Origin: a virus
Taxonomy: Duplodnaviria; Caudoviricetes
DNA: 64,000 nt
IMG/VR virus record: IMGVR_UViG_3300028888_001547
Location: 42,599 to 106,598 of that record
Reading direction: 5' to 3' (one strand)
Part shown: piece after piece, positions 19,685 through 45,174 of the stretch
Layout of the letters: each line of letters starts with the position of its first letter
How positions within the stretch are numbered: position 1 is the first letter of the stretch
Program-made: the position numbers and the translations under genes
The notes under the pieces: model-generated
Told to the model about the DNA's origin: nothing
Seen by the model: only the letters and a program-made list of their open reading frames with translations
Database searches by the model: none

Positions 19685-19714
19685 AATTTACATTAGTATG
19701 TTGAGTATCGAACA

Positions 19715-19732: not shown

Positions 19733-19761
19733 GTCGAATACTTATATTTTTGATATGTGCA

Positions 19762-21276: not shown

Positions 21277-21297
21277 ATATATTTATAATTGTGTGCA

Positions 21298-22467: not shown

Positions 22468-22510
22468 ATTATAATATGTAAGTTAATTTTTTACAGTTTA
22501 TTCTGTTATG

Positions 22511-23446
22511 TTAGTGTTTCCATTTACGAGCATTCAAAGCAAAGATTGCTCTCTTTCTCGTCAATGGGTTTTTGCTATGTGCTAATTCTTCTGTGGTTTT
22601 ACCAGTACGCTTCTTAGTAGCGTTAAACTTACCGCGGTTAGCAGGATTTATATGAATAGAAGATTTGCCGTCTTTATATTGTGGCATTGTTATCTACGGA
22701 ATTTGATATTCTGGCTCCCACTAAGAATCTTCTACCATCTATATTAAATCCGGAAAATTAATCCTGGGTTGTAACTTCAATATAGGTTTACCAGAGATAT
22801 ATGGGCTTACTGTAGTATCATAAGCAGGAATAGTGTGTTCAGCTGGAATAACCTGACGTACTGCTGTAGATACAGGTTGGTTTACTATTGGAGTAGGTTG
22901 TATAGTCTATACAGGTCTTAAGAACGGATCTGCTTTAAGGAGAGCTTGTTCTTCAAGTCTGCGCTTTCTTAAACCAGGATTTTTCTTATCGTGCATACCA
23001 GCATCAACTTGTCTGATAGCTTCTTCATAATTACCAGCATTCCAAGCTTTCATAAACTTAGTAGTAGGTTTAAAACCTGATGGATAATTATAGTAGTATG
23101 AACGTAATGCCGTTTTAGAACCTTCGCTAAGACTATCCCAGTTCTTCATTTTACTCAAGAACTTCTCCCTAGAAGCTACTTCTTGCTTAAGTCTACGGTC
23201 AGCTTCAGCTCTACTTATAGTACCTTTATCAACAAGAGAAGAATCAGTAAAACCATAGCCAATAGTAGGTATGCCATTACCATCCAAGTAAGTAGTATCC
23301 TTAAATCCTTCGTGCTTCTTTAAAAACTCCACGGTACTATCATACGAAGGTGTACCTTCAGCATATTTTGGAAGACCATTCTCATATGGCATCTTCCCTT
23401 CTTTGTAAAGTTTAAATCTTTGTCTAAATTCAGTTGGGTCTTGCAT
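22511..23446 (-). CDS. Lysozyme (GH24-like) domain protein with basic C-terminal module (~311 aa, TAG=Gln)
   Basis: HEGFKDTTYLDGNGIPTIGYG catalytic E-D-T motif and GLRKRR; read-through adds IHINPANRGKF..KRAIFALNARKWKH; TAA 22511. Confidence 0.8.
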
Positions 23447-23606
23447 ACGTCAGTCCTCCGTCTATTCTATTGCTAAGTAGATTAGCAACGACGTTGGTCA
23501 TGAAATCATCACCTCCGTCGTGCTAAACTAATCTTAGTATAAGTTTTAATAATTGATTGTTCTCTCTAGTAAGCTATAGAAGCTCTTGTTCTTCAGCATA
23601 CGTCAT
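23430..23606 (-). CDS. Small hypothetical protein (58 aa, TAG=Gln)
   Basis: ATG 23606 to TGA 23430 with two TAGs; fills the gap between neighbouring genes. Confidence 0.5.
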
Positions 23607-23607
23607 G

Positions 23608-24453
23608 TCACATACCTTTTTTTGGTCCGATTTTTATGGGTTTAAAATAAGTATCGAGATTGTTGTACATTGTATATATATCACGGAAAGCGTCCTCATA
23701 ATTATATGAACGCTGTATATTTTTTGGCAATTCTTGATTTGCATCATAATTATCCGTAACATATTTCCAAAAAGCAGGTTCGATTATTTTATGCGCAGTA
23801 TGTTCTAACGAGCCTGGTGTATCGTATCCGTCTTTATTGTTGATCACCATATCACCATTTGGACGGGAAAGAAACTATTTCATCCACTTCCAATTTCTTG
23901 GAGTATCTGTACCATAAACCTAATATGCATGCGATAATTCTGCGATAATATCTTCAGCAGCATACTCTGGATCTACATACATTGTATTAGTAATAGGTTT
24001 ATAATGCGCTCTGTTGTCACTATATTTTAATAAACCCGTTTTCTCTAACAAACGCAATGGTAACTAAGACATACGACTTATTGGCTTTATTGTCGGTTTG
24101 CCAGATTTATTATACAAATCCCACAACCTATTGACGTATGTACGCTAATCTAAAAGATAATCTTCAATAACATCAACATCCCCGGAATTTATACTTTCAT
24201 AAAACGCGTTACGTAATTCTTTATTGGGAATCATGTATTTTGCTTTATATACAGCATTGTCTTTTGGAGGTCTTATTACTACTTCCGGAAGAACGCCTGC
24301 ATAATAATACGAGTCATTTAAGTCACTCGCAGGACCAGATTCTGCCCACCGCATATCGTCTTCAGTAAAATTTTTTTCAGATCCCCTTAACTTTAAAAGC
24401 CTGTTATATCTATCTCCGTCATCGATGCGTTTTAATCTCTCTATCCTATTCAT
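23608..24453 (-). CDS. Hypothetical protein with degenerate zincin-like motif (~281 aa, TAG=Gln)
   Basis: ORFs 24145..24453 and 23608..23850 joined; RAHY..TNTMYV..DIIAELSHAY(Q). Confidence 0.6.
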
Positions 24454-26939
24454 TTTTCTCCTGCTACTTTATTACGAATAGCAGCACGAGCTTTTACACG
24501 TTCACGTTCAAGAGCAGCATCATCTTTCTGTTTCTGCAACTCCATCTCGTGCTTCATACGCTACTTTTCGAGATCAATCTTCTTATCTTCTATCTCCTTC
24601 TTCTGACGAGCTTCATAACGCTTAGTATACTCGTCTGATGCAATCTTACGTTGCTGTGTAGCATCCTTAGCTATCTCCATAGGATCAGGTATACCATTAT
24701 TATTAGCATCCTTCTCTTCTGTACCACGATATGCACTAATCTCAGCTACTGCAATCTTAGTCTGATTATCAGCATCAATCTTGTAACGCTCAAGCTCCAT
24801 CTTAGCTTCTTCAAGCATAAGCTCTTGCTCACGCTGTTCATTCTGCATCTGTTGCAGTTGTACAGCTTGCTGTTGTTCAGCTTCTTGCTGTTGCTGTACA
24901 GCTTGCTCTTGACGCTCCTGCATTTCCTTAAGCTTCTGCTTAATAATGTTGAAGTTATCGTTAGTAAGTACTTCAGCTGCTTCAAGTAAGCTAGCACCAT
25001 TCTGCATAGCTGGCTGAATAAGCTGCTGTAACTTCTGGATATTCTCCATATCCTTAGAAGTATCACTTACAAATACATCCATATCCTCATAATAGAACTT
25101 CTCTGTAATATCAAGATATGCACGCTCGCCATTATCGAAGATATAGCTAAGCTTCTGTTTACCAGTCTGTCTCCATGCACCTTGTGCTGTGTTAAGCAAC
25201 ATGTTTAAAGCGTGACGTTTACACTGATTGTGTGCCCAGAACAAAGGTTCTGTAATATGTGAAGACTGTACAACACTACGTTCTACATTACCTACAAGCT
25301 CACTAGAACTAATAGCACCTTCACGTTGTTCTGTAATACCAGATATAGTACCTGCCAACTGTTCGATCTTGTCCATCAACTGAATATACTCAGCGATTAC
25401 GTTCGACATAGTAAGATCGAGAGAAGTGATTTGATTAAACGTAGCAGGCTTTCCGCCTTCTCTTCCTGGTACATTCCAACCTTCTTCATAAGGATTAATA
25501 AAGTTTACACCAACACTAGACAAGTAGTGCATCCATCTGTCTGGAGTAATATTCATAGATTTAGGAATCTATGTAATATCCATATTTACTACTTTTCCTT
25601 TATCTCTTGCTATAGCTAACTCTAGTCTGTACCAAAGCACTATATACATATACTGTAAAGGCTTAAGGATGCTAACCAAGGACCTAGGGCGACTATTGGT
25701 ATTAGAATAAACGCATCCGCAATAGGGAAGCTTCTGAGAATTTGGGTTATCGAGAGATACGTGCTGATATTCAAGAGGCTGAATGCCAAAGTATAAATCA
25801 GAACCTGCACGATATCCTTCCCATACTTCTATAATCCAATCTGGTTCAACAGAGATTTCCATACCTGTTTTCTTGTAGGATTCGTCTGCTATTTCTACTT
25901 GTGCTTGACCAGCTTCATCAAAGTATGTGACATAATATATCTTTTTGAACGACTTCCAACAACAGTGCCATACATTGATAGTATATCTACCTTTCTGGTC
26001 AAATATTGGATTGTCGTATATTCTCATACGGATACCACCACCAAAGTTATCAACAATATCTTTATCTCCCATATCGTTGACAGGTCTACCAGTAAGCATT
26101 TCGTTGAGCTTATTGAGATCCTTCTCTGTAAGTTTATCGTAATACCTATCATATATTTCAGCCATTGGCAAGCGCATCTTTCTGCAGCACCAAGAACCGT
26201 CTTCAATAAACTCAAGATCAGGACTGTGATCATATCCAAAGAACATTGGATTCACCCTCTCCATATAAGGCTCATCGTTCTGCACGCCCACGTAGTATAT
26301 CTCGGTACCAGCGATAAGAGCATCTTTCCAACCTTTAATAAATTCATTGTCTAAGCTTAGTTTTTCTCTTAAGTATGTGAGAGTGTGATATGCAGTATTC
26401 TCTACAACGTCTTTATAATCTTTTGTCATATACTTAGCGATTGCTTCTGGTGGCATTACTTCACCATTCTAAAGCTGTTGCTAGAATTGTTCAGCTTCTT
26501 CTGGACTCATACGAGCTGTAATAGATGCCATTATATATTGCATAAGCATCTCTTTCTCCTTGTCCATAAGTTCCGATGCGGCTTCCTACGACGTTCTCAC
26601 TACCCTGAAGTTCATTGGCCTCTTTGTCTCTTCACCTATAAGGAGGTCTACCTTAGGCCTTATTATATTGAAATCTTGAGGAGTAGCGGGAAACCCGTCT
26701 TCTACTTTGAACGGGTTTGTGATTCGCTTGAAGTCTTTTTCATCAAATATAGAATTATAAAGGTTGTAGTAGGTCTATAATTCTCCGAAAGGTGTATCTG
26801 CTGTGACACCAGACGTAACATTTCCCTCGCCTATAATAAAGTCAACACAATCGTGCTGCCACTTTTCATCTTTTTTCTTTAACGGGAGTTTTTGCTAAGG
26901 AAATGAGATGTTGTATAAATTATCTTCTACTCTAACCAT
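24450..26939 (-). CDS. Portal protein (~829 aa, TAG=Gln)
   Basis: ATG 26939 joins ORFs 25569..26456 and 24561..25556; NIIRPKVDLLIGEETKRP, EVWEGY and GITEQREG motifs; TGA 24450; directly downstream of the terminase. Confidence 0.9.
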
Positions 26940-26941
26940 TG

Positions 26942-29002
26942 TTAAAAGCTAAATAAAGGTATATCGTCTTTCACGTCGTTATCACCAGCATCCCAATAGC
27001 GCTAACTGAATAACGGCAATTCGAAGAGTTCAACCTGTTTGTTTTGTTCCTTTGCAGCTGATACTTTAACCTAGTATAGTTCTTCTCTATATATCATAAC
27101 CATACACAAAGCTATTAGACGGTCCACGTTTCGTTCTCCGTCATTCATTATTAGCTCTTCGATTAAAGGTTCGCTGTATACTCTTTCTAGATTAGGATGA
27201 CCTTCTTCGTATTCTTCGAGAAGCCATTCTAGTATTTTTCCTTCTCCGTAGGCCCTAATCTGTTTTGTCATGTGACAGCCTTTTCGGCGCTGTACTTTAC
27301 TGTCTTTAAAGACTTCCGTAATGATTTTATCTGGTTGATCAGCTAGCAGATAGTCACAGTGTTTGTTCGTGAAGTATGGGTAGATACCCTTACGTTCATT
27401 CTCGAACAACAGCCTGGCATTATAGAACATGAGAAGCTTTCTTACGTTCTCATAATATTCTTCTGCTGTGTCAGGCCTTCCTGTGTACTCTGCTACTATC
27501 ACGTCGTTCCAGGCTTCTCCTGCTTTAACGCGTTTAAAAATAAACGTCGATCCTAAGGAGTTAGTGAACGACTCGTCATGATCATACGGGTCGCAACCGC
27601 CAATGTATAATCCGAATGGGGGATCTGGGATTGGGTATTCCCATATGACTACCGATCCGCTTGGTTTGTCATCTTTCTTTAATGGGTAAGTAGTTATATC
27701 ACCAGATTTCTTTTCATGTGCTTCAACGCCACCGTTACCATTCCATGAAAGATCCACAACGTGCTTCATATTCTAAAGCTTTTTGTTTGTCCTAATGCGG
27801 GTTAATTGATCCATCAGCATCTTACGAGGAAATATATTCTTACCAAGTTCCAGTACAGCCTCCTGTGGTTTGATAGGACGTTCAGATATAAATCTATCTA
27901 TAGACTACTGACTGGCGCCCCCATCTTTAATTTTATTACGCTGATGAATGAGTTCTTCTATAGCAAGTTCTTTTATACTGTTTCCATCGGGATCCATTAA
28001 AGGTTGTCCTTGCTCATTATGTCCTTCCATATTACTCCAAGAAGGAACAAAGAATCCGCAATTAGTTTGTTCAGCTTTATCATCCCATATGTTTGGGAAG
28101 CTAAGAACATTGTATGCGTCTGGTTTATAGAACAGTTCCTTTAGACCATCAAAGCTACCTCCTTCAGTACCGCCGGTACCAAAACCAATCATTAGACCGA
28201 AAGCTTTACCATCGTCAGTTTCTACAGCAGGCTGTTCAATACGCCACGCTGTAAGTAGATTTGGGAATTTACCACCCTCCTCCCATAGTACAAGTTTACC
28301 ACGAGTACCACGAATACGTTCAGGGTCGTTCTTCAAAGTAATACCAGCTATACGTGACATATAACCTTGTTCGGTTTCTTTACCAAACTCATCTTTTACT
28401 TTGAAACCAGATACACGCTCCATACGAGTATTAACAAGACGTTGCTTAGACCATCCTGTGTGTTTGTCTATGAAATCCATGATCTACCATGCTTTTGTAA
28501 GCAATCCGTCGCCAGTTAAATACTTCTGCTCTGAAGCTACAGCAAAGTTTTGTGAACCTTTTATAAGTTCGTAATTACGAACAAGCATCGATGCTCCTTT
28601 GAAAGAGTATCCTCTTTGACGAGCTTTAAGTACAGCCATATGCTTTCCTTCATCTTCAGCTTGTTCTATAGCGTTGAAATAATAATAATCGTAGTCCCAG
28701 AACCTCGGGAAGCCAAATATACGTTCACGACGTTTTCTTGTATTGCCGTATCTGTCAGTATATTCAACTTCGTCGAGCTTCATTATAGGACAGTAGTTTA
28801 AATAAAAATAGTGGTAGCCTGTAATAGCATCCCCATCGGGAGCGACATAACCGTTTAGACAGCGATCAGTTTCGCGATCCCAATATTGTATATAATCGGT
28901 AGTTCCACGCGGCGCCAAAGTATAACATCCATTCTACTAGAAGAAGATGGCCGCATATCTAAATTTGTCAGAGTTTAAAATTTTCTTATTAAAGTCTACC
29001 AT
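26942..29002 (-). CDS. terL: Terminase large subunit (~686 aa, at least 7 TAG=Gln)
   Basis: Walker A region LKARQRGYS, Walker B VLWEEGG, GTGG coupling motif, nuclease GCDPY..D and DRLIA; three ORF fragments in one frame separated only by TAG. Confidence 0.92.
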
Positions 29003-29013
29003 AGTTTATTGTG

Positions 29014-31122
29014 TTATCCAAGAACAATAGGGAATTCTGCGGGGAACTATGATGTTTCTGGATCTCCCCACAAGAAGTATATTGTATTATCGTCAGGTTC
29101 ATTTAAAGCAAGATATTCGCTCTACTGCATGAATGCGTGATTATATCTATTAGATGATATCGGTGCCATTACGTTACCGTATATAAACGCTGTATATGTT
29201 ACAGATGTTGGAAGAGTCGTCTATATTGGAGTACACCACACGTTTCTAAGTACAAGATCTCCGAACGTAGCTTCCTCATAATACTGCATATTGTTTCCAT
29301 AAATAACGCCAGTCTCATCGTTTTCCCATGTGAATGAGATATGAGTTACTTTCTTTGCGTTGGTTTCATCCATAGAAACGTATGCCAAATATAAAGGTTC
29401 TTCTATAGAACCAGCAGCTACTACAGTCATGTTTCCGTGTATAGAAGATACTTGTCCTTGTATTTGATCTACAATATCATCTATCTCAGATTTAGTATAT
29501 GAATCGACAGTTTCAGCGTTTCCGTTTCTTACTTGGAATTGTGCTGTTCTATCATCATCCAGGGTTACAGTAAGAACGTTTATTCCTCCATTATCAGTAG
29601 AGGTAGTAGTCTGTACTACGCTCTTTATACCAATACCGTCGTCACCTTTATCGCCCTTGTCGCCCTTATCACCTTTGTCTCCAGTATCGCCTTTGTCGCC
29701 TTTAGGGCCTTGTTCACCTTTTGGGCCCTATGCACCATCTGCACCTCTGTCGCCTTTATCACCTTTAGGTCCTTGGATACCTTGGATACCTTGAATACCT
29801 TGATCACCCTTATCACCTTTAGGTCCCTGAGCACCATCGGCACCTGTATCACCCTTATCTCCTTTATCGCCTTTATCACCTTTGATTCCTGCAGCACCGC
29901 TAAGTGTAGATATGTAATTAAAGCCACTGCTTGTCTTCATATACAATTTTCCATTATCTGTATATGAAGGATCGCTATTCGATATGATTACAAATTTATT
30001 TTCTGCAACGTTACCTGCATCGTCATTCATATCAGAAATAGACGAGTAGCTCTTATATATCGAGAATGGATCACCGGTATCTCCCTTAGGTCCTTGAGCT
30101 CCAGTAGGTCCTGCGGGACCCTATATTCCTTGTAAGCCTCGTTCACCCTAAATACCTTGTTCACCTTGAGGTCCCTACGCACCGGTAGCGCCAGTATCAC
30201 CTTTTGGACCCTGAGCACCAGTTGCTCCTTGGACACCTTGTAAACCTTGTGATCCGGTATCTCCTTTAGGTCCTTTTGCAACTACACCAGTAGATGTATA
30301 AGATGTTCCACCATTAGTAGATACTTCCCATTCAAGGGTTGTTGGGTTTATTCTAATAAGAGGTGTTGTACCATCGTTTCCACGAGCTTTAACTTGAGTA
30401 TCGGTACTTCCAACAAACCAGTTGCCGTTCATTCCGATAGTTGGAGAAACGCCATCAGTACCATTATCTCCTTTAGGACCTTTTAAGGCAGCTAGTTGCT
30501 GTGGTGTAAAATCTTCATATGTAAAATCATGACCAGATTGTCCTTCAGCACCCTATGCTCTTACTCCAGTATCTGTATCGCCTATAAACCAATGTCCGGA
30601 TTGGGAATCAATATGCGGAGTTACACCATCTTGACCATCTGCACCGTCTGTACCATCACGACCAGGAGCACCTTGTTCACCCTATTCACCAGTAAGACCG
30701 CGCTCTCCAGGTTCTCCTTTGGGACCTTTAAGCGCTTCTAACTATTCTTCTGTGAAATCTTCGTACGTAAAAGGATCTCCAGTCTCTCCCTGCTCACCTT
30801 TTTCGCCAGTTTCTCCTTTATCACCTTTATCTCCTTTGTCACCCTTTTCTCCCTTAAGGCCAGCTTCGCTAATTGCCTTAGCAATCATTGTTGCAATCTC
30901 TTCAGAATCTATATTAGAATCATCAGAGTTACAGCATCTTCCTTTGTTTTGAAGTACAAGGTTGAGCGTAGCATTAGCATCAAGTATATCGCCTTCTTTA
31001 AATGCAGGGTGACTAGGCGGATAATTACCGATGAGCACATTTGGATGCATATCTCTTCTGGCAGATGTGCCAAACTATGCAAGATCCTTAAGTGCTTGTT
31101 TTTTCTTTATACCTAATATCAT
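29014..31122 (-). CDS. Collagen-like (Gly-X-Y) fibre protein (~702 aa, TAG=Gln)
   Basis: ORFs 30742..31050, 30175..30432, 29728..30030 and 29221..29430 in one frame; GDKGDKG/GPKG repeats, GNWFVG linkers, FTYEDFT..L.ALKGPKG repeats. Confidence 0.85.
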
Positions 31123-31136
31123 ACAGCTTCAGTATT

Positions 31137-31607
31137 TTAAGATTCAGTTGGTGTTATGATTGCTTCAAGCGCTTCGATTCTAGCTATAAGGCTTGCAATA
31201 TCCGGTGTGTTGATCAAATCGGTATATGAACCCGATGTTGCTACAGTAGCGAGATCTGCACTATTTGCTTTAGCCTGGTTCAATGCTTGTTCTGCTGCTT
31301 CAGCTCTCTCCTGTTCGGCATCTACATCATCTTTACGATCCTAAATTTCGTCATCGATCTTTTTGTTTAAAGCATCTTCGGCAGCTTTAGCTCTAGCTTC
31401 TTCTCCATGAGCATACTCGTCAAGCTCACGAATATTATCGTGTTGAGCATGCGAGTTGTTTACAATAACATCAATTGTTTTATTAGCGTCCCAAAATTCA
31501 GCAACGTGTTGTTTGCCGTTGTCTGAAATTACGGCTTTTGGCATAAATTCTGTACGAATATGAGTGCCAGTACTTACAAGGTCTTTAAGTAATACTTTTC
31601 TTTCCAT
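31137..31607 (-). CDS. Short fibre-like protein (~156 aa, TAG=Gln)
   Basis: Coiled coil and LATVATSGSYTDL motif; N-terminus resembles that of the collagen protein. Confidence 0.65.
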
Positions 31608-31615
31608 ATTATATA

Positions 31616-32128
31616 TTACATTTCGTAGAGGCCTATAACACCTCCACCTTTAACTTTACCTGTCTCTAACTACTCAGCCTTAGCCTATTTCATAGCCACA
31701 TCTAGAGACTTAACTATGTTTCCGACATCCTTTAAAATACGTGTTACTTTAATAGCGGTGTCTATGTCCATATTACCCTACGAGTAGTCATTTAGGGCAG
31801 CTATCAGCCCCTCCGCTGCAGTCTATGATGCCGCAAGCAATCTTGTTCCTGGAGTTTCTTGAAACTCCGTAAAGCGCTACGCTAGCTGTTTTACCTATGC
31901 AGTGGGTTCATATTTTTCATCATGAAATACATCCTTTGCTACGATAGAAGCCCGTTCCGACATAGGGTACGCTTCATATGGTGTATTCCATTTATAAAGC
32001 CATATTACATATTCGATCTCCTTCAACGCCTAAGACTTATCCTCAGCACCATTGAAATGATCTCTAAATGGCGGTATGGCTAAGTCTTCGGTGTTGAGAG
32101 ATATTTTATTACCTTTTATATCAAACAT
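31616..32128 (-). CDS. Conserved crAss-like protein upstream of terL (candidate small terminase; 170 aa, 7 TAG)
   Basis: Absent from the ORF track; ATG 32128 (MFDIKGNKI) to TAA 31616, ending GKVKGGGVIGLYEM. Confidence 0.6.
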
Positions 32129-32516
32129 AAAAGCTCAGTATTTTTTCAAGCATCTTATACATACGTTGTACAAGATACCCAATAAGGTAGGCGGCTGTTT
32201 CAGAGTCTTCGTCTATGCTGTAATATTCACATACGTGTGACTATACATGTTTAGCTTCATGTATTGCAGTATTAACAAACTAACTAACGTTTGTAGTTTT
32301 GCCTATACACACAATGCTCATCTTATAGTCAGTATTACTAAAAGTAAATCCGGTATTCTTTCTACCGAGCGCGTTATACGCAGCAATTATATGCTTTTTT
32401 GGACAATCTAATTGCAGTAACGAATCTTCTATTTCTGCAAAGTCTTCTCGTCCTGCGTTATAGTACACTAAAACATTCCAACCTTTATTTCCTAGTTGTA
32501 TATATTGTGCTGCCAT
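32121..32516 (-). CDS. Small zincin-like (HExxH) protein (131 aa, TAG=Gln)
   Basis: Read-through gives NTAIHEAKHV..ETAAYLIGY; TGA 32121. Confidence 0.65.
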
Positions 32517-32524
32517 AACGAAGA

Positions 32525-33019
32525 TTATTGTTTATTTTTTAATAAGGATTCAAGTCTATCTAATGTATCCTGTATACTATCTACTCTCTATGAAAGATCT
32601 GTTATAGCGCTATCCCGTTCTTGCTCTTTAGCATATACTGGATTTAATGTCTTAAGGATCTTTTCATAAGCTACCATATCAGATTTACGCTTATCCATAC
32701 TATCCAATATGTCTTTATTTGATTGTAGAAGCCCGTCTACTTCCGATATCATAGCCTCTTTACTTTCACTAAGAGTATAATCACCATAAGTATGTAATGA
32801 CAGACTTGCTGGTACACAGAATTCTTTCTTCTCATCGTCTACGCGTGTCGTTATATCTACTACAGTCTACATATTAGTACCAAGACTAACTGAAGGATTG
32901 TAAGTAGGATACATTGGGCGTGGTGTAGATACATTTTCAACGTACCCGATCTTTACTTCGGGCGTACTCGTCCTATCTAGTATATAGATAGTGGAGCCAT
33001 TTCTAAGTGTAGAAAACAT
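32525..33019 (-). CDS. Hypothetical protein with C-terminal coiled coil (164 aa, TAG=Gln)
   Basis: ATG 33019 (MFSTLRNGSTIYILD) to TAA 32525 with two TAGs. Confidence 0.65.
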
Positions 33020-33037
33020 AATAATAATTATGCTGTA

Positions 33038-33055
33038 CAGGGGCCGAAGCCCCTG
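33038..33055 (-). promoter_or_regulatory. UUCG-capped GC hairpin (terminator or stability element)
   Basis: CAGGGGC-TTCG-GCCCCTG in an intergenic gap. Confidence 0.5.
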
Positions 33056-33070
33056 AGAGCATATTTTACA

Positions 33071-33376
33071 TCACGCGAAGCGACGACGCATACGGAGACC
33101 GCGGCTTCTATGACCCATACGTTTCATATAAGACTTAATCCCGCTCTCTTCGTCATCGTGGCGGTATTCTTTATCTGATTCAGTTACACCACGAAGGCTC
33201 ATCTCGCCTTCTTCAAGTGAACGTTCTTGTTCATCCATTGACGCATCGTAACAATCGTACATAGCGTTCTCTAACTCACACAAAGTAAGCTTAGTCTTTT
33301 TAGCATTCAGCTTAGCTTCGTCAAGTAGTTCAAACGCTGTCTCATACGCAGCGTCACGCATTTCAATAACTACCAT
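33071..33376 (-). CDS. Hypothetical protein (101 aa)
   Basis: Intact ORF with an Arg-rich C-terminus. Confidence 0.6.
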   Translation of the reverse strand: MVVIEMRDAAYETAFELLDEAKLNAKKTKLTLCELENAMYDCYDASMDEQERSLEEGEMSLRGVTESDKEYRHDDEESGIKSYMKRMGHRSRGLRMRRRFA

Positions 33377-33402
33377 AATTTAATAATGTTAAAATGTTAA
33401 TA

Positions 33403-33735
33403 TTAAGCTGCTACAGCAGAGGTTATCTGCAGTATGCCATTAAATCGATCGTTGAAGACCGTAATAATACCTGTGCCTGTTAAATCGGCAGCGGTTACAG
33501 GGGTTCCATTGAAGAAAGTAAGCGGTCTAGCTGTACCATTCAATGTGAGGGTTATAGGTAATGTCCCTGTAGTACCCTCAGGAATAGCATCCTAGATACG
33601 AACTGTAAAGTAACCAACAGGTTGAATACGACGGAAACCTAAAGCAAAGTCTACCGCTGTATCAGTTACAGTTACGTTAGTTGTGCTTAAGTATGGAACT
33701 CCATTTACGTTTGTAGTTACATTAAAGCACCCCAT
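33403..33735 (-). CDS. Hypothetical beta-rich protein (110 aa, TAG=Gln)
   Basis: ATG 33735 (MGCFNVTTNVNG) to TAA 33403 with one TAG. Confidence 0.65.
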
Positions 33736-33746
33736 ATCACTTACTA

Positions 33747-34637
33747 TTAAAATGAAACATTGTTGCTCCAACCATTCCAACCACCGTAGAAACCTCCCAT
33801 GTATGGAGTAGTATTAACTGCGGTCAGTTGAGGCCACTGTACAGGTACTGTATTAGGCTGTGAAGCCTTAATAGTTGCGAGCTCAGTAGCAACATTATTA
33901 AATTTCTCGTTAATAAATGCAGTCTGGCGGTCATTGTTTATATTAGAACGCAACAGAGCATTGTCAGCTGTCAAAGAGTTGATCTTATCCTGCAGCTCTC
34001 TCTTTTCGAGATCACAGAACTTGTCGTTGATCATTACACTCTGACTCTGTATTGCATCTACGATGTTGCGAGTATTACGCTCAGCCTGTGTGCTCAGCGT
34101 GTTTGTTTGCTGACATACTGCAAGCTGATCGGCTGCTTGATTTGCGGCCATCTGAGACTGCAGTGCGTTGGTCTGGTTGGCAATAGCCAAACGATTCTCA
34201 CAGCAGCACTGACAGATCTGGCTTGCTATAGATGCATTACCACTCTGGATAGCGTTCTAAATTTGCAATCCGCTCATGCCCACCTGAGTACCAACAGAAG
34301 TAATAGCGTTGTTGAGAGTAAAGATACCATTCTGTACAGTGTTTATTTCTGTGTTCAGAAGACCAGCAAGGTCACGAATAGCGTTACCATTACCCTGGAT
34401 AGCATTCATAAGCAGTTCACGACCAGAGTCGTTAGCAATCTGGTTAGAGAGGAATCCGTTATTACCGTTTCCGCCCCAGTTACCATTGCCACCCCAGCCC
34501 CAAATAAGCCAGAGGAACAGAATCCATATCCAATTGTTACCACCAAATCCACCATTATTGTTAAGAGCCATAAGCAGATTCGGATCAATACTGTTACTTC
34601 CCATCTCAGGGAACATCATAATTTTAGAACTTTCCAT
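33747..34637 (-). CDS. Gly/Asn/Trp-rich membrane protein with coiled coil (296 aa, TAG=Gln)
   Basis: ORFs 34257..34637 and 33747..34190 joined; WIWILFLWLIWGWGGNG TM segment and CQCCCENRLAI. Confidence 0.7.
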
Positions 34638-34708
34638 AGTTTTATTTATCGTTGATAATTAATAGTTTGTTGTTGATAATCCGCATTGTACAGCGCGGAA
34701 ACTGTTTG

Positions 34709-34811
34709 CGCGTGGTGACGGAATCGAACCGCCAACAGGTGCCTCCTTCACTTGCCGCCACAACGCGTTTGCAAGCACTTGTCTCCCGCTTTACCATTAA
34801 GCTAACCACGC
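34709..34811 (-). ncRNA. tRNA-like RNA with enlarged, non-canonical anticodon arm
   Basis: Acceptor GCGTGGT/ACCACGC, D arm AGCTTAATGGTAAAGC, T arm GGCGG-TTCGATT-CCGTC; central region of ~50 nt. Confidence 0.6.
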
Positions 34812-34845
34812 AATCCCTATTTTAGACAGTTAGGGTTCTGTTATA

Positions 34846-36744
34846 TTATGAAGATAGTTCAGACATTGCTGACGCTTTACTACTCCAGTATTGAGCTGAT
34901 TGATATGCCGATAACGTACCAGCAGGAACTTTAATATATGTCATACCTCCCAAAGCATTCTAGTTAGCCAAAGTTGGAGGTGTGGTAGCCAGTACAGTTA
35001 ATTTAACACCTTTTGTTCCGTATAGGAAATTTTCACCTATTTCAGTAACGCCAGCGGGTATTGTTAACTCTAAGTTACTACTACCACAATAAGAAAACAT
35101 GCCTGATGGCAATTTTGTTATATTCGGGTTTAATGTTGCTGACGACAGCGCCGTACAGGATGCAAATTGACTACCTGTCCCGTATCCTGCATTATAAAAC
35201 AAAGACTGTTCTGATATATTAGACAAATCTACACTTTGCAAACTTGTACATTCTTGAAAACAATTTGCACCAAGAGCGATATCCGCATTAAATACAATAG
35301 ACTGTAACGATTTAGCCTTCTAAATACCTTTGTGGCCTATAGTACCACCACCTAAAAATTCTATAGACTATACGTTTGAATTTTCAAAACTTTGCATACC
35401 TATAGATACTCCATCTTTAAACTAAACGCTTGTTGGAATATTAGTACCACTAAAGGCCGTCATACCAAAATTAGAAACTTTATCCAAGTTTGTAAACGTA
35501 CAATTTTTACAATTTCTAAACGCACTATTTTGTATAGTTGTAGTATTTGCAAAATCAAACGTGCTTGCTAAATTAGTACACCCTTCGAATGCGCTTGCAC
35601 CAATAGACGTTATTCCGCTAACACCTGTAAGAGTAGTAAGATTTGAACAATCTCTAAAAGCTTCTTTATTGATCTGGGTAACTCCTGTTATATCAAGTTG
35701 ACGTAAACTTGTACAAGATTTAAAACATGAGTTAGGTATTGTGTGTCCAACAATATTAGACCAATCTATATCAACTGCTGTTAGAGATGTACAGCCGTTA
35801 AAACAATCATTACTAATTGTTGTTACATTTGATAAACCAGTAAGCGTAGTTAACGATGAACAGTTCTTAAATGCTTCACCATTCATGGTAGTAACACCAG
35901 ATAATCCGGTTATACTAGACAAATTTGTACAATTTATAAAACAGGTCGCTGGAATTTTATGCGTGTTTGAAGATACATTTATTGACGTAATAAGAGTACA
36001 TCCACTGAAATCACTGCCTTCATTATTACTTGTGCCTAACAAAAACTATACATTAGTAAAATTATTACTTGTCAGTTTACTACAATTTTCAAATGATCTC
36101 TACGCTAATGTTATCTCTCCTGAAAGTCCAGATATAGTCTCTAGATTACTACAACCTCTAAACGCAGACGCTCCTATTTTTTCAAGGCTGCTACTTGCAA
36201 TAACCGTTTTTAACGCAGTACATCCCCAAAATGTTGGATCATTCACATATGTATGTTCATGTCCAATCATCGTAAGATTACTAATATCTATCTCTTCAAG
36301 AGCCGTCCAATCTTTAAAACTATAATAACTAGTTCCTTGTCCGTTCCAACCTCCACTAGAAGATGCTGTTATATTAGTAAAATATCTAAACTCATTAAAC
36401 TTAGTAACAGTTGTATTAGCAGTACTTGAATATATGCTAGTAGCGGCTGCAGCCTATGATTCAGTAACCATACCATTGCTACCTACACCTATAGAGTTCA
36501 AATAAGTAACTATGTTAGGATCTTCAAACTCCATGGCATAATCATCTGCATTGATGTATAGACTAGGATATGTAGATGTCAACCATTGGATTTGGCTTCG
36601 TATTCCTACAGCACTATGTAATCTACCCTACAAATTACTAGACACATCAAGTCCAGCATGAGCAATCTCATATAGTTTAGTAATCATAGAAGAACTTACT
36701 TCTTCAATTACTCCATTATTTTGTTCTATTCTTAAATGTGTCAT
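34846..36744 (-). CDS. BspA-like leucine-rich repeat (LRR_5) protein (~632 aa, TAG=Gln)
   Basis: Repeats of the form I...AF.GCTSLT; KFNEFRYFT motif; C-terminal ATTPPTL..IKVPAGTLSAYQSA.YW; fragments in one frame. Confidence 0.8.
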
Positions 36745-36746
36745 AG

Positions 36747-39700
36747 TTAATTCTCAGTTATTTTATCAAATGTACTAAACGACTTATTATTTGGAATATT
36801 TACAAGATCCAAAGAATCAAGATTTGCGTAACTATCTACAACAACTCCAGCAGGAGTAAGTACAGTAGGATTAATCAAACTAATACTAGTAGGAGTACCA
36901 ACTTCATATTTAGTAACCTTAGTTCCAGTAGGTACTAATACATTAACTGTAGTACCACTAGCGTCTACCTAAGTCAATTCAGAACATGCAGTAAGATCAA
37001 TATTACCAGTCAGGCCTGTACAGTTCTAAATAGACAACGTCTGTAAACTTGCCATATTAGAGAAGTTTACTTGAGTCTTATCATTATCTTGTATACTATT
37101 AGAAGTATTGGTGAGACTAGCAAATCCGTCAAGAATAATACCAGTTACATTTGGTAAATACTTAAACAAATATGAACCATTTGCAGTAACCAAATTAGGT
37201 AACGTACTTACATAGTTAGTAAAGTCTATAGTTCCATTCAACGCATACAAATCCATCTTATAAATATAGTTACGTCCAATAGAAGAACCAAACTGTGTAG
37301 TATAAGCATCGTTTATAGGATTATACAGCACCTGGTTACTTTGTACAATAGAAAGTACATCGTCAGATACAACAAGAGTAGCAGTTGCTGTTATTTCCTT
37401 ACCAGATACAAATCTGGTAACAGCGCTTACTGTATAGAACTCCATAGCATCGTTAGCTGGCATTGCTGCGTCGCAAGAGATGCGTACACCGTGTTTGTTA
37501 GTATAAGAAGAAGCTGTAATATAATCATCATACAGTTCAGCAAGACCGGCTCCATTACCACCATCAACATAACTTACAGTAGTATTATCCGAGTTACGTT
37601 TAACGTAATATGTTATTTTATTTACTGTACCTGTGTATGTATCATTTGTATCTACAAAAAACCTAGCACGTTGTCCAGATTGATAGAACTCTATATAATT
37701 ACTTACAGACCTAGGAGCAGCCTATCCTTCATTCTCAATATTAATAAACTGTGATGTAGGATATGTGGCAGCTTGTATGTGGATTACTGTAGAATAATTT
37801 ACACCTTCGACAGAGCATGTTACCTACACATCGTAATTTGCACCTTCATTAGATTCAGTAGATGTAATATATGCGATTCCATCAACACTCTAATCTTGCT
37901 AAATTACAGTAAGACCTTTATATCTTCCATAAGACTCGGCGCTCCCTACGGGTCCAATAGCCCATGCGTATTGAGTAGTGTCATCTTCAGCAAGTGAGAA
38001 TCTAGTAGCATTAAGTGATGCAGAATTACCTTCCGTAAGAGTAACACCACCTTGTTGATCGATAATAACATTACCACCGATATTAATCTGTACATAATTC
38101 CTCTTATGGTCTACAACAAGACCTGAAGAATTCTTGGTGAATACCGTATCGCCAAACCAACTCTTAATGTTGTTCAATTGTTGAGATGTAAGTTCTGCTC
38201 CTGTGTCTTTGAGTACAACGTAACCTTTTAAGTTTCTTGCATTATTAAGCTGTGCTATAAGAGCAAGTTCATCATATGTAAGAAGATTAATTGCACCAAC
38301 GGTATCGTCTCTCCAGTCAATCTTATCCATCTCCAGAGTATACTGGCTAAGATCGGCGTTAGCATCAACAAGATTGTTCAACCAACTACGAACCATCTCC
38401 ACCGACTCAGGAGTTTTACCTGTTGTACCAAGAAGAGATATTTCGTGTACTGTAGTAGGAACTCCACTGCATTTAGTAAATGTAGCTGCGTTATTGCTTC
38501 CCACTTCAGAATGCCAGAACTCAAGAGTCTGCCAAGACGAGTTGTTTACATAGAATCTATATACCGTATCAGGAATCTCAATCTTAGAGAATGTATTACC
38601 TGATTCTGAACTATAGAAGTTAGTAAGACCTGAACCTAATGCAAGTACTTGTGAAAGCTCTGTCAAGTTGTTATTATAGATAAGAGCATTGGTATCTGTC
38701 TGATTACGCTGTCCTCTAATGTTCAAAGACTGCAGGTTAGCAAGAGTATTGGCGTTTGCTTGGATCTGACAACCAAGTACAGCAACAGTACCTGTGAGAG
38801 TATCACCACTTCCGCTTGTTGTTATACCTACATTTATTCGTTTGATCGGAGAACCAAGTACTTCAGAGTATGCACCGTCAAGCGTTACACCATCGAGACC
38901 AAGTGCTATTTCACTAAGGTCTATCTCTTCCATAAAGTTAGCGCCGTATACAGTAACAGGGTTCTTTGTGTTAGATCCACCAGCAAGATCTCCATATCCT
39001 GTACCCATGTTATGGGTAAAGATATTACTTTTAGATACATTGAGTGTCGGTCCCCAAGGAGCACCTTCTTTATATATACTCATGTATGTATCCTTTGTTG
39101 GAGTAATTCTGATGGTCTGATTAGATCCCTCCGTTACGTTAGCACGAATATAGATGTAGTGGCTCTTATATTCACCACAGAACCATTTGGCATCGTAGTA
39201 GTCCATAGAGTTGCTCAACCACCAGTGACGGTGAGTCATACGAGAACCCTACAACCAACTCAACCAAGTTGGGTCTCCATTACCAGATTCGATATATTTA
39301 AAGAATCCAGACTTGTTATACATTAACTCGCACCATGCGGCAGCATAATCCTGATCAAACAGTGTTGAAATATTATCATATGTAAGACCTGCATTATACA
39401 AGGCATCTGCTACTTTAGGTACAACTGTATTTGCCCAATATGGCCAAGCCTCAAGAGCATCGAATAGCCAGTTTGATGTTACAACATTTCCGTTATTATC
39501 TGCACTTCTACCAGAGAATGCATACGTAGTAACAGATCCTGGAAGTTTTGTATTACGATCAATAGGAGGCTCGTAAGCAATACCACCATCGTTCTTATTA
39601 CCGAGGGCAATATCCATATCCCAAGGCTCATAGTGGAAGTGAACGCCATCGTATGTCTTGATCTGAGCGTTACGTTCCAAAGAGTCGACGAGACCGAATC

Positions 39701-42700
39701 TCATACAGAATATGTAGTAGGCAGCCATCTTATACAAGTCAAGATGTTGCGCAGCTTCTTGCTGGAACTTCTATTGATTGTTATATGTACTTACTACCCA
39801 AGCATGGAAGTCTACAAACGGTTTTGTTTTGATGTAGAAGTTGGAATCAGTACTAAACTTGTCCTGCGTGATCTTATTGCCCTGCTCATCTTTTACTTCA
39901 AGGATATCATCTTCATCTGGGAATATAAGTTCAAATGCTTGTTCCCATCCCCACATGCGTTCATACTCACCAGTACCATTACCTTGGCTATCAAGTTTTT
40001 CAATATTTAATACTTGCTCAAATCTATTATCGTGCGTCATGTATGACGAATATTGTGTGTTAGAGCTAAGTACTTCAATACGAAGAACATTGCTGTTATC
40101 CCATCTACGATTCTGTTTAGTATCCTAATTCTTATATGTATTTGTTAAACAGAAAGGATCTTTGGGGACTGCGTATATACTTCTTTCGCCGTATGTAAAG
40201 TCAGACTTCTTATCATCCATAAATACATATTGGCCAAGGAATATACGTCTTTGAGCACCTTGTTCATCAAAGTAGAATACTGCACAAGGGAATGAATCTG
40301 GAGCAATTCTAATATTGTATGGGAAACTATTTTCTGTCACGTCACTCCACTATACGTCTTGAGACTGTATAATGTTGCCATTCGTATCGTATCTGTTTCT
40401 CTTACCATAGCCTTCTGTCCAAGCGTTATCCCCAGTTTCATTAAGATTTGCATCATTGTGATGAACAAGCTGGTTAGTTGCAAACAGCTGAGGTTCAGTT
40501 CTAAGCTTATACTCGCCATCGATATTTGCACCAAACCAGGTCTTCTGTATGATACGCTGGAGGGATCCATTATGAACACCAGATGAGTCAGCATAGTTGG
40601 CTTGCAATACGAACTTATTGGCTGGAATAGATGCCTTGCCCTGATCGTCAGAAGACTTCATCACGTATCTGTTCTTATTCAACAGAAGGTCCTCTTGCTG
40701 TGTGAGTTCCCATGTAGGAACGGCACCGTTCTTAGACTTGTTCAGCCAGAACTTCATTGACGTGATCGGGTAGTTAAGAGTAGACTGACCGTGTTTTCTA
40801 ATCTGTGCACCTACGATCTTAAAGTTTTTCGTAGAATCTGACGGACAGAATCTTTCAATAGTTACATCAGTGGTAGAGTCTTTTTTATCTGTTTGTCCAC
40901 TAAGAATGTTAGAAAGGTTACCTGTTATAAGAATAGTATCAATCTTATTCTTACACAGATCAAAGTCAATCTCGCCACCAGCGTTCAGAATGTCGTTTCT
41001 GCTAGCGATTACAGCCTTTTCTGGGCTATCAAATACAAAGTTATTATACGCGTCAGTATATGTAATAGAATAATCGTATATTCTTATAGTATATACTCTT
41101 ACACCTGAATCAGATCCACCTATTACTATATTACCATGTGTAGTAAATGCCTAACCTGAAGCAATAGCAGCTCTCTCAAGTATACCGTTATTGACGATAT
41201 ATGCGAGACCTGACTCTACTGTACGGTCTTGACTGTTCTCAGGAACGGCATTAATAATAAACGACAACTTGATACGTTCATTTGCTTTATAATTGGTATG
41301 TACTACTTCAGTGTTAGAGTTTCCATAAAGAGTAGCAGTATCAGGTGTAATCTCAATACGCGCACCCTAAGGATTACCTATTACAACAAGTTTGTCATTG
41401 TCGTTTGCTACTTTCTCAGATTCGAACTCAATCTCGATAGTTTTACCTTTTACAAAGTCAAAGTTAGAGAACGGCTGTGCATTAATAGTTGCATATTCAT
41501 TTTGCCCAACAGTACGGAAGCTGTTTTCATACCAACCAGAGTTAGTATTCCAAGCAATATTAGTAAACGTTGTAGAAACCTGACCAGATTCATCTGTCCA
41601 AACATCTTTGGTAGAACTACTGTTAGTTCTTCCATAGCCAGACATTTTAGTCTCGTAGAAGCCAGTTTCATTGATCTTAATCTTGGTATTCCTTACTATA
41701 TAGATAGGAATAGCATTCAAAAGAGTGTTTCTAAAATATGCAGCTACGTATGTATTTACGCCATCTTCTGTATAGATAGTAGGTACAAATGTAAGCGTAG
41801 CGGCACGTTCTTGGTTGTTTGCTGTGATATCTCCCAAATTAATTGGGTTCGCATCATCCAATCCTCGTAGCAACTTCCATGTAACAGGAATAGATGTATT
41901 TGTCTAAAGACTATCTGTATAGTAGCCCCAATCAATGATCGCAGACTCATACTGAGTAGCATACAACATCAGATTGCTTAAAGGATAATCACCTGTATTA
42001 AATGAACTAGCAGTATTAATAAACTTATTAGTACTACCAACTACGCTAGATGCTACAGTAAATGTATAGTATAAAAGATTACTATTTACAGTTGTCTAAC
42101 CGTCGTTATACTTTGTCTCTGCCCATATCTACAGTGAATGCTGTCCTTCGCTAAGCGTAGGCTGCAATCTCTGAGTCTCCACAACTCTTGTAGGCCCATC
42201 TTGTACAACATCTCTAGTTGCCTCAAGACCAGAGCCACCGTTATCAATTCTAAAGTATATTTAGCTGTACCAGAAGTATTGTTACGCTCAAATACATAAG
42301 GAATCTAAATGGCTTGCTGTGGTGTAAACTTCTCATAGAATCTAAATGTACTTGATACGGTTACATCTAGAAGCACGATAGTAAACGTACGGTTATTACG
42401 AGCACCAGTAGTAGAACCCTTCGCCTCTATACTTACTACGTTTTCTCCTGTTTGCAAGTATTCGTATATACTAAAATTAGGATCCACATCTGATCTATTA
42501 TACCAGCGAGTAAAACTATTAGTAAGTCCAGAAGAGGTATTTGTTATTGTATATTTTACAGAAAGGCTGTCCGAAGATTCTCCTTCGTCATTATATATAC
42601 TCCAATGGAAAGCTATTCTAGAACCGTTACTGTTTGTATCTCCTTGGCGGATAAACTTGTTGTTGAAGCCATCACTATCTGTAGCTGTCAAATCAAGTTT

Positions 42701-42979
42701 ATAATCGCTAGGACGTGCAAAGCTAAACAACTCTAAATCCTGATTATCAGTAGGATTTTCAAGCCACATAGCATATGCTTCTTCACTAGAGAACATCCTA
42801 TATTTATTATTAGTAGGATCTTCTTTCATGACAAATGGTTCCTTAAGCCTACTTTGAAGAAGCTCTCTAATAGCACCACCGGATACCTGCTTGCCTTCTG
42901 TTTCATTTTGTCCTGTGAATGAGTTTACACCAGTAATCCAGTCTGTAAACTCACTTATTTTACCATTATATGTCTACAT
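36747..42979 (-). CDS. Giant virion-associated protein with CotH-kinase-like domain (~2070 aa, TAG=Gln; frameshift at ~42260)
   Basis: Starts ATG-TAG at 42979; seven downstream ORF fragments share one frame; GLVDSLERN..YEPWDMDIALG kinase-like motif; LRR-like C-terminal part; the N-terminal ~240 codons are in a different frame. Confidence 0.7.
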
Positions 42980-42990
42980 GTGTTATGTGT

Positions 42991-43176
42991 TTAATCTTTC
43001 CAAGGCGTATCTTCAGTCCAAGCATATTGGTCTTGCCAATAACCGCTTGCGTAACATGAAGGAATTGCTTCTATAATGCCAGGCCACACCTTGTGTTCAC
43101 CTACGTATACAGCGAATATTTCTTCACCGTTGTACCTAATGTACATTACCGGCTTTCCATTTTTATATATACCCAT
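42991..43176 (-). CDS. Small hypothetical structural protein (61 aa)
   Basis: Intact ORF; I.AVYVG..KVW and W.D.Y.W.ED..WKD motifs. Confidence 0.6.
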   Translation of the reverse strand: MGIYKNGKPVMYIRYNGEEIFAVYVGEHKVWPGIIEAIPSCYASGYWQDQYAWTEDTPWKD

Positions 43177-43192
43177 GGCATTATAATATTAA

Positions 43193-44134
43193 TTAAACGG
43201 CCCAAGGACCTTGATTATTTGCTTTAGCCCAAGCAATATACTTTACAATGTCCTCCCAAGTACAGGTAGGATCGTTTGCATCGATATTATCATAGAAGTC
43301 GTCAGCTGCCTTTACGTACTTATACGCAGTAGTTGGATCGTTTGCATCAGCTTTGTCAGATGCTTCTGTAGTACGTGTAGCAAGTCTAATAACGCCAGCC
43401 TTATTAAAACGATAATCACCAGTGAACAGCGAAGTATGCTCTGTGTTAAATGTACCAAACTCAAGACCGTCGCCACCACCATGTTCGAACTTAATCTTAT
43501 TCATGTGGCCCTGACCATCGCTACCTTTCGGCTGAAGAGCAATACCACCGTGGTCTTCACAACGAAGGTCAATGGCCTGTGCACGAACCTTCAAATAACC
43601 CTTAGTGTTTTTACCGCTGTTTACATTAATATCAAATACATTTGCATCAGCGCCAGCCTTATCTTTGGTAGTAAGCGTCATTGATGCAGCATTAACCTGA
43701 AGTTTTACAGGATTATCTTCACCGTCAATAATTTTAATTGACACTTCGTCCTGATTTTCTGCAAGTCTGTGATGTGAGCAGAACTCAATATCATCGCCAG
43801 GCTTAAATGAAATATTACCACCTTTTGTGGTATCAACACTTTCACGAGGCTCAATGTTGATATTGTTCTCAGAAGTAAGCGTAGTATTTACACCTTTCTT
43901 CTTTTTTGTAAGCTACATTACAACAGGAGAGCCTACCGTACTAACACCTGATGCAACTGCTACATTTACTGTAGCGTCGCCACCACTCTGTGTTACATCA
44001 GTAGCTGAAACCGTATTAGAACCACCTTCGTTTATGGCATCTACAGCTTCATTTACATAACCAGTAAGCCCATTCCACTCCTGTGCACTGAGTATGTCTC
44101 CAGTCTGTTTTTGTGTAAATGTTTGTTTTGTCAT
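43193..44134 (-). CDS. Hypothetical structural/fibre protein (313 aa, TAG=Gln)
   Basis: ORFs 43913..44134 and 43193..43744 in one frame; N-terminal KQTGDILSAQEWN. Confidence 0.65.
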
Positions 44135-44294: not shown

Positions 44295-44852
44295 TTATTG
44301 TGCTTCTTCAGAATCGTTTATCGATTCCACCGCTGCCTCGTTTGCGGGCTCAGAGTTTGTAGTCTCGACTTCTGTTTCCGGAAGACTCTGAGTAGCCGTA
44401 GGTGCGCTTTCGTTTATATTGTCAGTAGACCCATAACCGCCTTCTCCACGGTCAGTCTCACTGAGTGTATCACTCTCCTCAAACTGTACATCAGGTACTG
44501 GGAGTATAAGGAGTTGACAAAATCTTTCACCTTCTTTATATATAGCAGGTACAACATCTGTTGTAGCTCGCATCTTGGCCATTACTTCACCACGATAATC
44601 AGAATCAATTACACCAATACAATTAGTAAGTATAAGAGATTTCTTTGAGATAGATGAACGAGGAACAAGAGCTCCAAAATAACCTTGAGGAATCTCTACT
44701 GCAATATCAGTATGATATACAAGGACAAGCTGTCCACACTCGTTAATCTCTGTTGTGATTCGTGTACATGTCAAATCGAATCCAGCATCTGTGGCATGTG
44801 CCTTTACAGGTGCGATTGCATTTTCTGAAAGTCTTTTAAATTTAATTACCAT
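44295..44852 (-). CDS. dut: dUTPase (trimeric)
   Basis: AGFDL, PRSS, GVIDSDYRGE, Q and RGEGGYGST motifs; likely start ATG 44852. Confidence 0.93.
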   Translation of the reverse strand: MVIKFKRLSENAIAPVKAHATDAGFDLTCTRITTEINECGQLVLVYHTDIAVEIPQGYFGALVPRSSISKKSLILTNCIGVIDSDYRGEVMAKMRATTDVVPAIYKEGERFCQLLILPVPDVQFEESDTLSETDRGEGGYGSTDNINESAPTATQSLPETEVETTNSEPANEAAVESINDSEEAQ

Positions 44853-44876: not shown

Positions 44877-44953
44877 TGGTTGCCCAGTCCGGTTCATCTC
44901 CAGATCTTCCGGGGTTAGAGCCCGACGTGCTAGGAATCATACACCACTAAGCA
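44877..44953 (-). tRNA. Amber suppressor tRNA (anticodon CTA, probably Gln-charged) with non-canonical D/T loops
   Basis: TGCTTAG/CTGGGCA acceptor (U1:A72), GTGT/GCAC D stem, TCGGG-CT-CTA-AC-CCCGG anticodon arm, TCTGG-AGATGAA-CCGGA T arm, encoded ACCA end. Confidence 0.85.
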
Positions 44954-45084
44954 GTACCTACCGGGGGTAACGCTCCCCCGCATTGGGTCTAACCGTAGGT
45001 TGCCAATCAACATTTTAACTATGAATATACAGGGTTCCGGATGGCCATCCGAATCTCAGCCTCCCCTGTATCGGCTGTGTTATG

Positions 45085-45145
45085 CGGCTCTGGGAAGATT
45101 CGAACTTCCTGCACGCCCGCCGGACAACCGACATATCGCAGCGCC
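45085..45145 (-). ncRNA. Truncated tRNA-like element (acceptor + one hairpin + T arm)
   Basis: GGCGCTG/CAGAGCC stem, GGAAG-TTCGAAT-CTTCC T arm, only ~29 nt between them. Confidence 0.5.
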
Positions 45146-45174
45146 TTCCAGTATAACGTAACGGTTATACTCGT

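Follow-up and report, generated by a model that had tools for sequence, protein, structure and literature searches.

Gut phages that have reassigned the TAG stop codon (genetic code 15), crAss-like phages among them, encode a suppressor tRNA(CUA) (Yutin et al. 2021, PMC7886860; Borges et al., 10.1101/2021.08.26.457843; Kienbeck et al. 2024, PMC10879173). Amber suppressors were detected in only 40% of TAG-recoded phage genomes, and the remainder were guessed to have noncanonical tRNAs missed by current methods (Borges et al., 10.1101/2021.08.26.457843). In the survey of Kienbeck et al. (PMC10879173), suppressors were identified with tRNAscan-SE only and were mostly of Gln isotypes; about 30% of those near theta ribozymes were predicted to be of non-Gln isotypes, and CCA was encoded in only 4.5% of the theta-ribozyme-linked tRNAs.

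Here, we analyze a 64-kb stretch of phage DNA (the window), which makes up the final 64 kb of a 106.6-kb virus record rated complete by CheckV; the record has no terminal repeats, and a small missing piece is formally possible. An amber decoder built by placing a CUA anticodon on a tRNA-Gln body is the principle of Escherichia coli supE, and tRNA-Pyl is a natural amber decoder with a CUA anticodon and without G18G19 or the T-Psi-C motif. The window contains a tRNA (Table 1) that is almost certainly functional and that, from its sequence and that of its homologs, appears to be a real, glutamine-inserting amber suppressor with a new elbow structure. We found no description of suppressor tRNAs with an altered elbow in the searchable literature, a scope outside which most subscription journals lie.

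Like the code 15 phage suppressors, this tRNA is phage-encoded, carries CUA, is Gln-like and lies ahead of TAG-containing late genes, and canonical members occur at the same locus in relatives; as in supE-type suppressors, CUA sits on a Gln body. In contrast with the tRNAs of the surveys of Borges et al. and Kienbeck et al., which were found by standard finders, it is missed by ARAGORN and Rfam, and unlike the theta-ribozyme-linked tRNAs it carries an encoded CCA and is not followed by a ribozyme. It is similar to Bacteroidales tRNA-Gln in U1:A72, A73, G10 and the D stem GUGU/GCAC, with the D loop, the variable loop and the entire T arm having been replaced (the host loops being AAUGGUA and UUCGAAU). 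With metazoan mitochondrial-type tRNAs it shares a normal cloverleaf without the conserved elbow nucleotides and detection by the mitochondrial modes of ARAGORN only. The stems, however, are GC-rich and of full length, strict conservation instead of variability marks the loops, and this tRNA would have to serve a bacterial ribosome, EF-Tu, RNase P and GlnRS rather than a co-evolved organelle. Both this tRNA and tRNA-Pyl have CUA and lack G18G19 and T-Psi-C. A tRNA-Pyl identity was nevertheless rejected on all four structural features compared: the anticodon stem (6 bp in tRNA-Pyl, 5 bp here), the variable loop (3 and 4 nt), the bases between acceptor and D stems (1 and 2) and the D loop (5 and 10 nt). 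Furthermore, TAG aligns here with Gln and not with Lys.

Table 1. Coordinates of the tRNA locus and of the late gene block, numbered on the window
Feature	Position	Strand	Remarks
Late/structural gene block with many in-frame TAGs	3..44134	-	ORF lists with and without TAG = Q
dUTPase	44295..44852	-	start 24 nt downstream of the tRNA; Pfam dUTPase E = 3e-24, PHROG 135
Predicted amber suppressor tRNA(CUA), Gln type, class A elbow	44877..44953	-	77 nt including encoded CCA; 21/21 cloverleaf, homolog covariation
Discriminator A73 and encoded CCA	44877..44880	-	CCA = 44879-44877
Acceptor stem UGCUUAG/CUGGGCA	44953-44947 and 44887-44881	-	U1:A72
T loop AGAUGAA	44893..44899	-	without U54-U55-C56; G replaces A at 58
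Anticodon loop CUCUAAC	44914..44920	-	CUA at 44918-44916; U33, A37
D loop AUGAUUCCUA, 10 nt	44931..44940	-	without G18G19; A14 and A21 retained
Noncoding stretch, tRNA-like mini-elements and hairpins	44954..45174	-	conserved in L003, L004, L006, L012

Results

TAG recoding in the phage genome

The major capsid protein (19762-21276) matches the Crassvirus capsid family (E = 1e-204), and the genome is that of a gut or rumen crAss-like phage that is heavily TAG-recoded. Readthrough of TAG lengthens the longest frame from 506 to 1837 aa and joins the minus-strand genes of the late block into long ORFs, each containing as many as 19 in-frame TAGs; these late and structural genes are the likely clients of the tRNA. 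The meaning of TAG was assessed by comparing all ORFs among four genomes, i.e., that of the window and three complete relatives. At 891 aligned TAG positions, the residue opposite was Gln in 234 cases, TAG in 151, Lys in 73 and Glu in 56, and TAG is taken to stand for Gln because this is the commonest residue opposite it. The window genome contains 375 in-frame TAGs, a count similar to that of the relatives G002 (395) and G005 (444), which indicates that recoding is fully in use; the suppressors of these two relatives are canonical or near-canonical and are called by ARAGORN. The original prediction of an amber suppressor accompanying TAG-to-Gln recoding in a crAss-like phage thus agrees with both the TAG count and the Gln tally.

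A single CUA cloverleaf is present in each of the four genomes, in every case upstream of the dUTPase gene, and the third complete relative (G001) likewise has only a noncanonical suppressor. No other cloverleaf with a stop anticodon and at least 20 pairs is present in the whole 106.6-kb genome. Two Rfam tRNA matches in the window (34709-34811 and 62933-63012) were considered as alternative suppressors and rejected, neither having a CUA anticodon arm. The former (minus strand, 43.8 bits) has canonical acceptor, D and T arms with 47 nt in place of the anticodon arm and sits between two TAG-containing late genes. The latter (plus strand, 40.2 bits) has an oversized anticodon region, which ARAGORN reads as a 4-base anticodon at a lowered threshold and as a tRNA-Leu with a 9-nt intron when introns are allowed.

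A complete cloverleaf without the universal elbow

The tRNA follows type I architecture, with stems of 7, 4, 5 and 5 bp and 7-nt anticodon and T loops, and all 21 stem positions are paired, five of them as G-U. U8 and G9 lie between the acceptor stem and the D stem (GUGU/GCAC), followed by the anticodon stem UCGGG/CCCGG, the variable loop AAGA and the T stem UCUGG/CCGGA. The core residues U8, A14, A21, U33 and a purine at 37 are all in place and invariant in the homolog alignment, and the anticodon loop is also that of the canonical orthologs L015, L012 and L004. The elbow, in contrast, has none of its usual nucleotides (G18 G19; T54 Psi55 C56, A58), the D loop AUGAUUCCUA lacking GG and the T loop carrying A54 G55 A56 and G58. 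Cloverleaf, CTA anticodon, U1:A72 pair, encoded CCA and both loops had been noted beforehand, and all proved correct in position and on the minus strand.

A cloverleaf scanner that scored stem pairing only and left loop sequence free detected two 21/21 cloverleaves when both strands of the window were scanned, namely the suppressor and a canonical tRNA-Glu, and zero in 40 dinucleotide-preserving shuffles; such a cloverleaf is well beyond what chance would give. In folding energy the single sequence is unexceptional (z = -0.22), and support therefore comes from the cloverleaf count and the comparative data rather than from thermodynamics. A minimum-free-energy fold that pairs D-loop UUCC with T-arm GGAG was ruled out by compensatory changes in the T stem; the same fold also pairs position 9, yet G is replaced by U there in three homologs.

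ARAGORN did not call the site in its standard modes, with introns allowed or at the loosest threshold (ps80) included, and the 34 calls made at that threshold were mostly spurious. The Rfam tRNA model (RF00005, gathering threshold 29 bits) gave no match to the suppressor and only noise even at E<=10 in the surrounding 800 nt. The expectation that standard finders may miss this tRNA thus holds for both tools. The metazoan-mitochondrial modes of ARAGORN, which do not require canonical loops, report exactly these 77 nt as a CUA tRNA.

The dUTPase anchor and orthologous suppressors

The dUTPase gene is a conserved anchor of the locus, with 20-25 nt separating it from the tRNA in relatives. Genes from 47049 down to the dUTPase tile gap-free under the standard code, and the tRNA is located within this TAG-free stretch, just before the TAG-containing genes. 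A 200-aa ORF (44295-44897) that would overlap the tRNA was rejected as a spurious dUTPase extension starting from an ATG in the T loop, since homologs align from the downstream ATG. ORF finders add these 15 codons (44853-44897, minus strand) to the dUTPase, and the 3' part of the tRNA is thereby covered by a protein call.

A megablast search of 4 kb against deposited phage genomes gave no match, and 14 related loci were fetched via the dUTPase protein (59-99% identity). In most of them, a CUA tRNA occupies the corresponding position and has the D stem of the window tRNA, a CUCUAAC loop (UUCUAGC in L003) and an ACCA end. Two are fully canonical, with a GG D loop and a UUCGAnU T loop (L015 and L012, Rfam 53 and 49 bits), L004, L006 and L007 combine canonical loops with three T-stem mismatches (30-34 bits), and L003, L014 and the window have noncanonical loops and are unseen by Rfam and ARAGORN. 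The window tRNA is orthologous to canonical CUA suppressors. The three T-stem mismatches (CCGGG versus CGAUG) are conserved, alongside canonical D and T loops, in L004, L005, L006 and L007 (approximately 2401-2478), and L008 and L009 have just the 3' half of such a tRNA upstream of the dUTPase.

A search for the D arm of the canonical orthologs (UG-GUGU-AAUGGUA-GCAC), covering a single genome for each prokaryote species, yielded 113 cellular tRNAs, 111 of which are tRNA-Gln. They stem mainly from Bacteroidales and Verrucomicrobiota; most begin with U1, and the examples displayed have A73. The window tRNA shares the D stem, U1, G10 and A73 of Bacteroidales tRNA-Gln, U1 being invariant among its homologs. 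The Gln-like character originally proposed is thus upheld, and such a body agrees with the TAG-to-Gln tally.

Constraint on the alternative elbow

Homologs with the elbow of the window tRNA (class A) were sought in viral and metagenome sequences using a pattern whose only fixed parts were the D stem, CTCTAA, AAGA and ACCA; the invariance of these parts among homologs is therefore by construction. The 10-nt D loop and 24 nt of T arm and 3' acceptor could take any sequence, and the 5' acceptor was not part of the pattern. The two scans gave 16 matches representing 10 distinct sequences, all with D loop AUGAUUCCUA and T loop AGAUGAA. With earlier, looser DNA patterns the matches listed were mostly due to chance, and the cloverleaf scanner was used as a filter; the T-arm 17-mer alone was abandoned as a query, as it matched mainly coding sequences.

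In the alignment of the 10 class A homologs, 99% of the stem cells are paired and 12 of the 21 pairs have changed on both sides, values that none of 500 shuffles reach, and slid controls pair at 32-48%. Among the free columns, 23 of the 24 in the acceptor and anticodon stems vary, as opposed to none of the 17 in the D and T loops (Fisher p = 1e-10). The 1:72 pair is U-A, U-G or unpaired (one U/U). The dUTPases beside class A tRNAs are only 53-67% identical to that of the window, hence the loop invariance does not reflect recent common descent. In the larger class A loci, the longest frame, whose change was the only measure used, grows with TAG readthrough and not with TGA readthrough. The overall pattern looks like that of a working tRNA with a constrained alternative elbow, i.e., the opposite of a pseudogene, and neutral drift is an unlikely cause of the elbow because the loops are invariant. 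The noncanonical D and T loops of the original prediction are thus real and under strong selection. The contact it proposed between D-loop CT and T-loop GA is without statistical support: the longest complementary run between the two loops is 3 bp (UUC/GAA), which is at chance level (p = 0.73), and the 10 homologs show no covariation between the loops, both being invariant.

Further elbow classes and exchange between phages

At least two noncanonical elbow forms besides that of the window are present at the same locus. Class B (L003, L011, L222 and L299) has D loop AAAUACCUUAA, T loops UAGGUGG or CAGGUGA and covarying T stems, while L014 and L023 (tRNA on a 414-kb phage contig) have UGCU or UGCC in the D loop and GGCA in the T loop; no further members of this last form were found in the viral scan. 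Watson-Crick runs of 4 bp between D and T loops (ACCU/AGGU in class B, UGCC/GGCA in L023, CUUA/UAAG in L014; p = 0.05-0.14 per class) are no more than suggestive of pairing between the two loops in these tRNAs. Across all classes, D-loop type and T-loop type are perfectly associated, with zero chimeras, which is class-level evidence for co-adaptation, from few independent origins.

The dUTPase tree shows full intermixing of the tRNA classes, with class A requiring four or more changes on well-supported branches and clustering no more than shuffled labels do. L252 (class A) and L222 (class B) have near-identical dUTPases and match in the upstream flank, 5' acceptor, D stem, 3' acceptor and ACCA, whereas the segment running from D loop to T arm differs along its whole length; the tRNA core has therefore been exchanged as a unit on one background. 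The elbow forms behave as interchangeable alleles, and their mixing among close relatives is compatible with an arms race and does not show one.

Discussion

Function and rival explanations

We consider it highly probable that the locus encodes a functional phage UAG-to-Gln suppressor tRNA with a fixed alternative elbow module. Such a tRNA would descend from a Bacteroidales-type tRNA-Gln, would probably lie in a TAG-free leftward gene unit starting near 47049, just before the TAG-containing late genes, and would probably be cut out of the leftward transcript. It would probably be charged by the host glutaminyl-tRNA synthetase and, once charged, would read the approximately 375 in-frame UAG codons. 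G18G19 and T54-Psi55-C56-A58 are replaced by a module consisting of D loop AUGAUUCCUA, AAGA and the T arm UCUGG-AGAUGAA-CCGGA, and this new elbow would presumably hold the L shape.

Alternatively, the locus could be a decaying pseudogene of a once-canonical suppressor, TAG then being read by other means, such as near-cognate pairing of tRNA-Gln(CUG) or a host factor. Rfam scores do drop stepwise from canonical to undetectable among the orthologs, L008 and L009 keep just a 3' half, and the phage of the window encodes a canonical tRNA-Gln(CUG). However, decay would be expected to hit the stems and the anticodon loop, yet compensatory changes have preserved all 21 pairs, and the odd loops stay identical in 10 sequences despite the divergence of the neighboring dUTPases; moreover, G001, which has another noncanonical form, has no tRNA-Gln(CUG), and we regard decay as very improbable. 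Somewhat less improbable, though still unlikely, is a tRNA-like RNA unused by the ribosome, such as a processing signal, a decoy for tRNA-targeting defense or a regulator. The absence of the elbow residues contacted by RNase P and the ribosome and the presence of several truncated tRNA-like elements next to the gene would fit such a role. Against it stand the retention of CUCUAAC with U33 and A37, of the 7-bp acceptor stem, of A73 and of CCA, the canonical CUA tRNAs at the same site in relatives, and the need of the genome for a UAG decoder for which no other candidate is present.

The tRNA could also be a working suppressor that inserts another amino acid, for example through a changed synthetase identity. 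The identity elements of GlnRS are known mainly from E. coli, and the 1:72 pair varies among homologs. A non-Gln isotype would have parallels among the suppressors adjacent to theta ribozymes (about 30% predicted non-Gln; PMC10879173). Gln is, however, by far the commonest residue opposite TAG, and the D stem, U1 and A73 match host-type tRNA-Gln; we give insertion of another residue as little credence as decay. For the glutamine-inserting suppressor we favor, the locus is a concrete, comparatively validated example of a suppressor that escapes finders, and its signature can be converted into a search model. In annotation, the dUTPase ORF is extended over the tRNA and such genomes are scored as suppressor-less. 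If true, a tRNA working in bacteria without G18G19 and T-Psi-C would show the extent to which the elbow can be rebuilt, and it could offer compact, perhaps orthogonal amber-suppressor scaffolds.

Why the elbow differs

The other tRNAs of the phage have canonical elbows, so the change is specific to the suppressor. All 14 non-suppressor tRNAs in the four phage genomes (G000, G001, G002 and G005) end with the discriminator and a single C, without encoded CCA, whereas every suppressor at the dUTPase locus, canonical or not, encodes ACCA. tRNAs without CCA require RNase Z and the CCA-adding enzyme, both of which bind the T arm and the elbow; the elbow is likewise touched by RNase P, by the ribosome and by T-loop modification enzymes. 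We infer that encoded CCA, by removing the dependence on RNase Z and the CCA-adding enzyme, relaxed one constraint and may have allowed the elbow to be rebuilt. Evasion of host elbow-recognizing factors (nucleases and modification enzymes), a speculation, would fit the observation that several forms are fixed and pass between phages. The altered elbow may instead tune decoding against release factor 1, by analogy with D-arm mutations that raise stop-codon reading, or it may be recognized by a phage factor.

A broader generalization seems to us evenly balanced: that in a clade of gut and rumen crAss-like phages suppressors work in ordinary bacterial translation without the universal elbow, that at least three fixed elbow modules are exchanged as cassettes, in a manner that fits diversifying selection, e.g., against host elbow-recognizing factors, and that hidden tRNAs explain part of the ~60% of TAG-recoded phages without a detected suppressor.

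Neighboring tRNA-like elements

The noncoding stretch upstream of the tRNA is probably co-transcribed and processed with it, and it has no Rfam family. Its first element (44955-45000, minus strand) combines an acceptor-like stem (ACCUAC/GUAGGU) with a T-like arm (GGGGG-AGCGUUA-CCCCC), ends 1-2 nt before the first base of the suppressor and may be a processing signal for the suppressor 5' end. It is also present in L004 and L006, and in L003 with compensatory changes (UCCUAUG/CAUAGGA); in other relatives this place is taken either by a tRNA-like fragment carrying a canonical UUCGAUU arm or by a hairpin GGCUC-AGUCGUUAAAA-GAGCC. Further upstream, a short tRNA-like element (45027-45154, minus strand), common to L012, has a perfect canonical T arm (GGAAG-UUCGAAU-CUUCC) and an acceptor stem paired at 6 of 7 positions, and is too short to hold a D arm and an anticodon arm. 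Next to it comes a conserved stretch rich in hairpins, and the motif CCAAUACAG recurs in the corresponding gaps of relatives. Elsewhere in the window, ARAGORN calls a permuted tmRNA (62441-62822, plus strand) with the tag GDMNIVDYTGLKEAA, and calls with similar tags in G002 and G005 suggest that a tmRNA-like gene is conserved in this phage clade.
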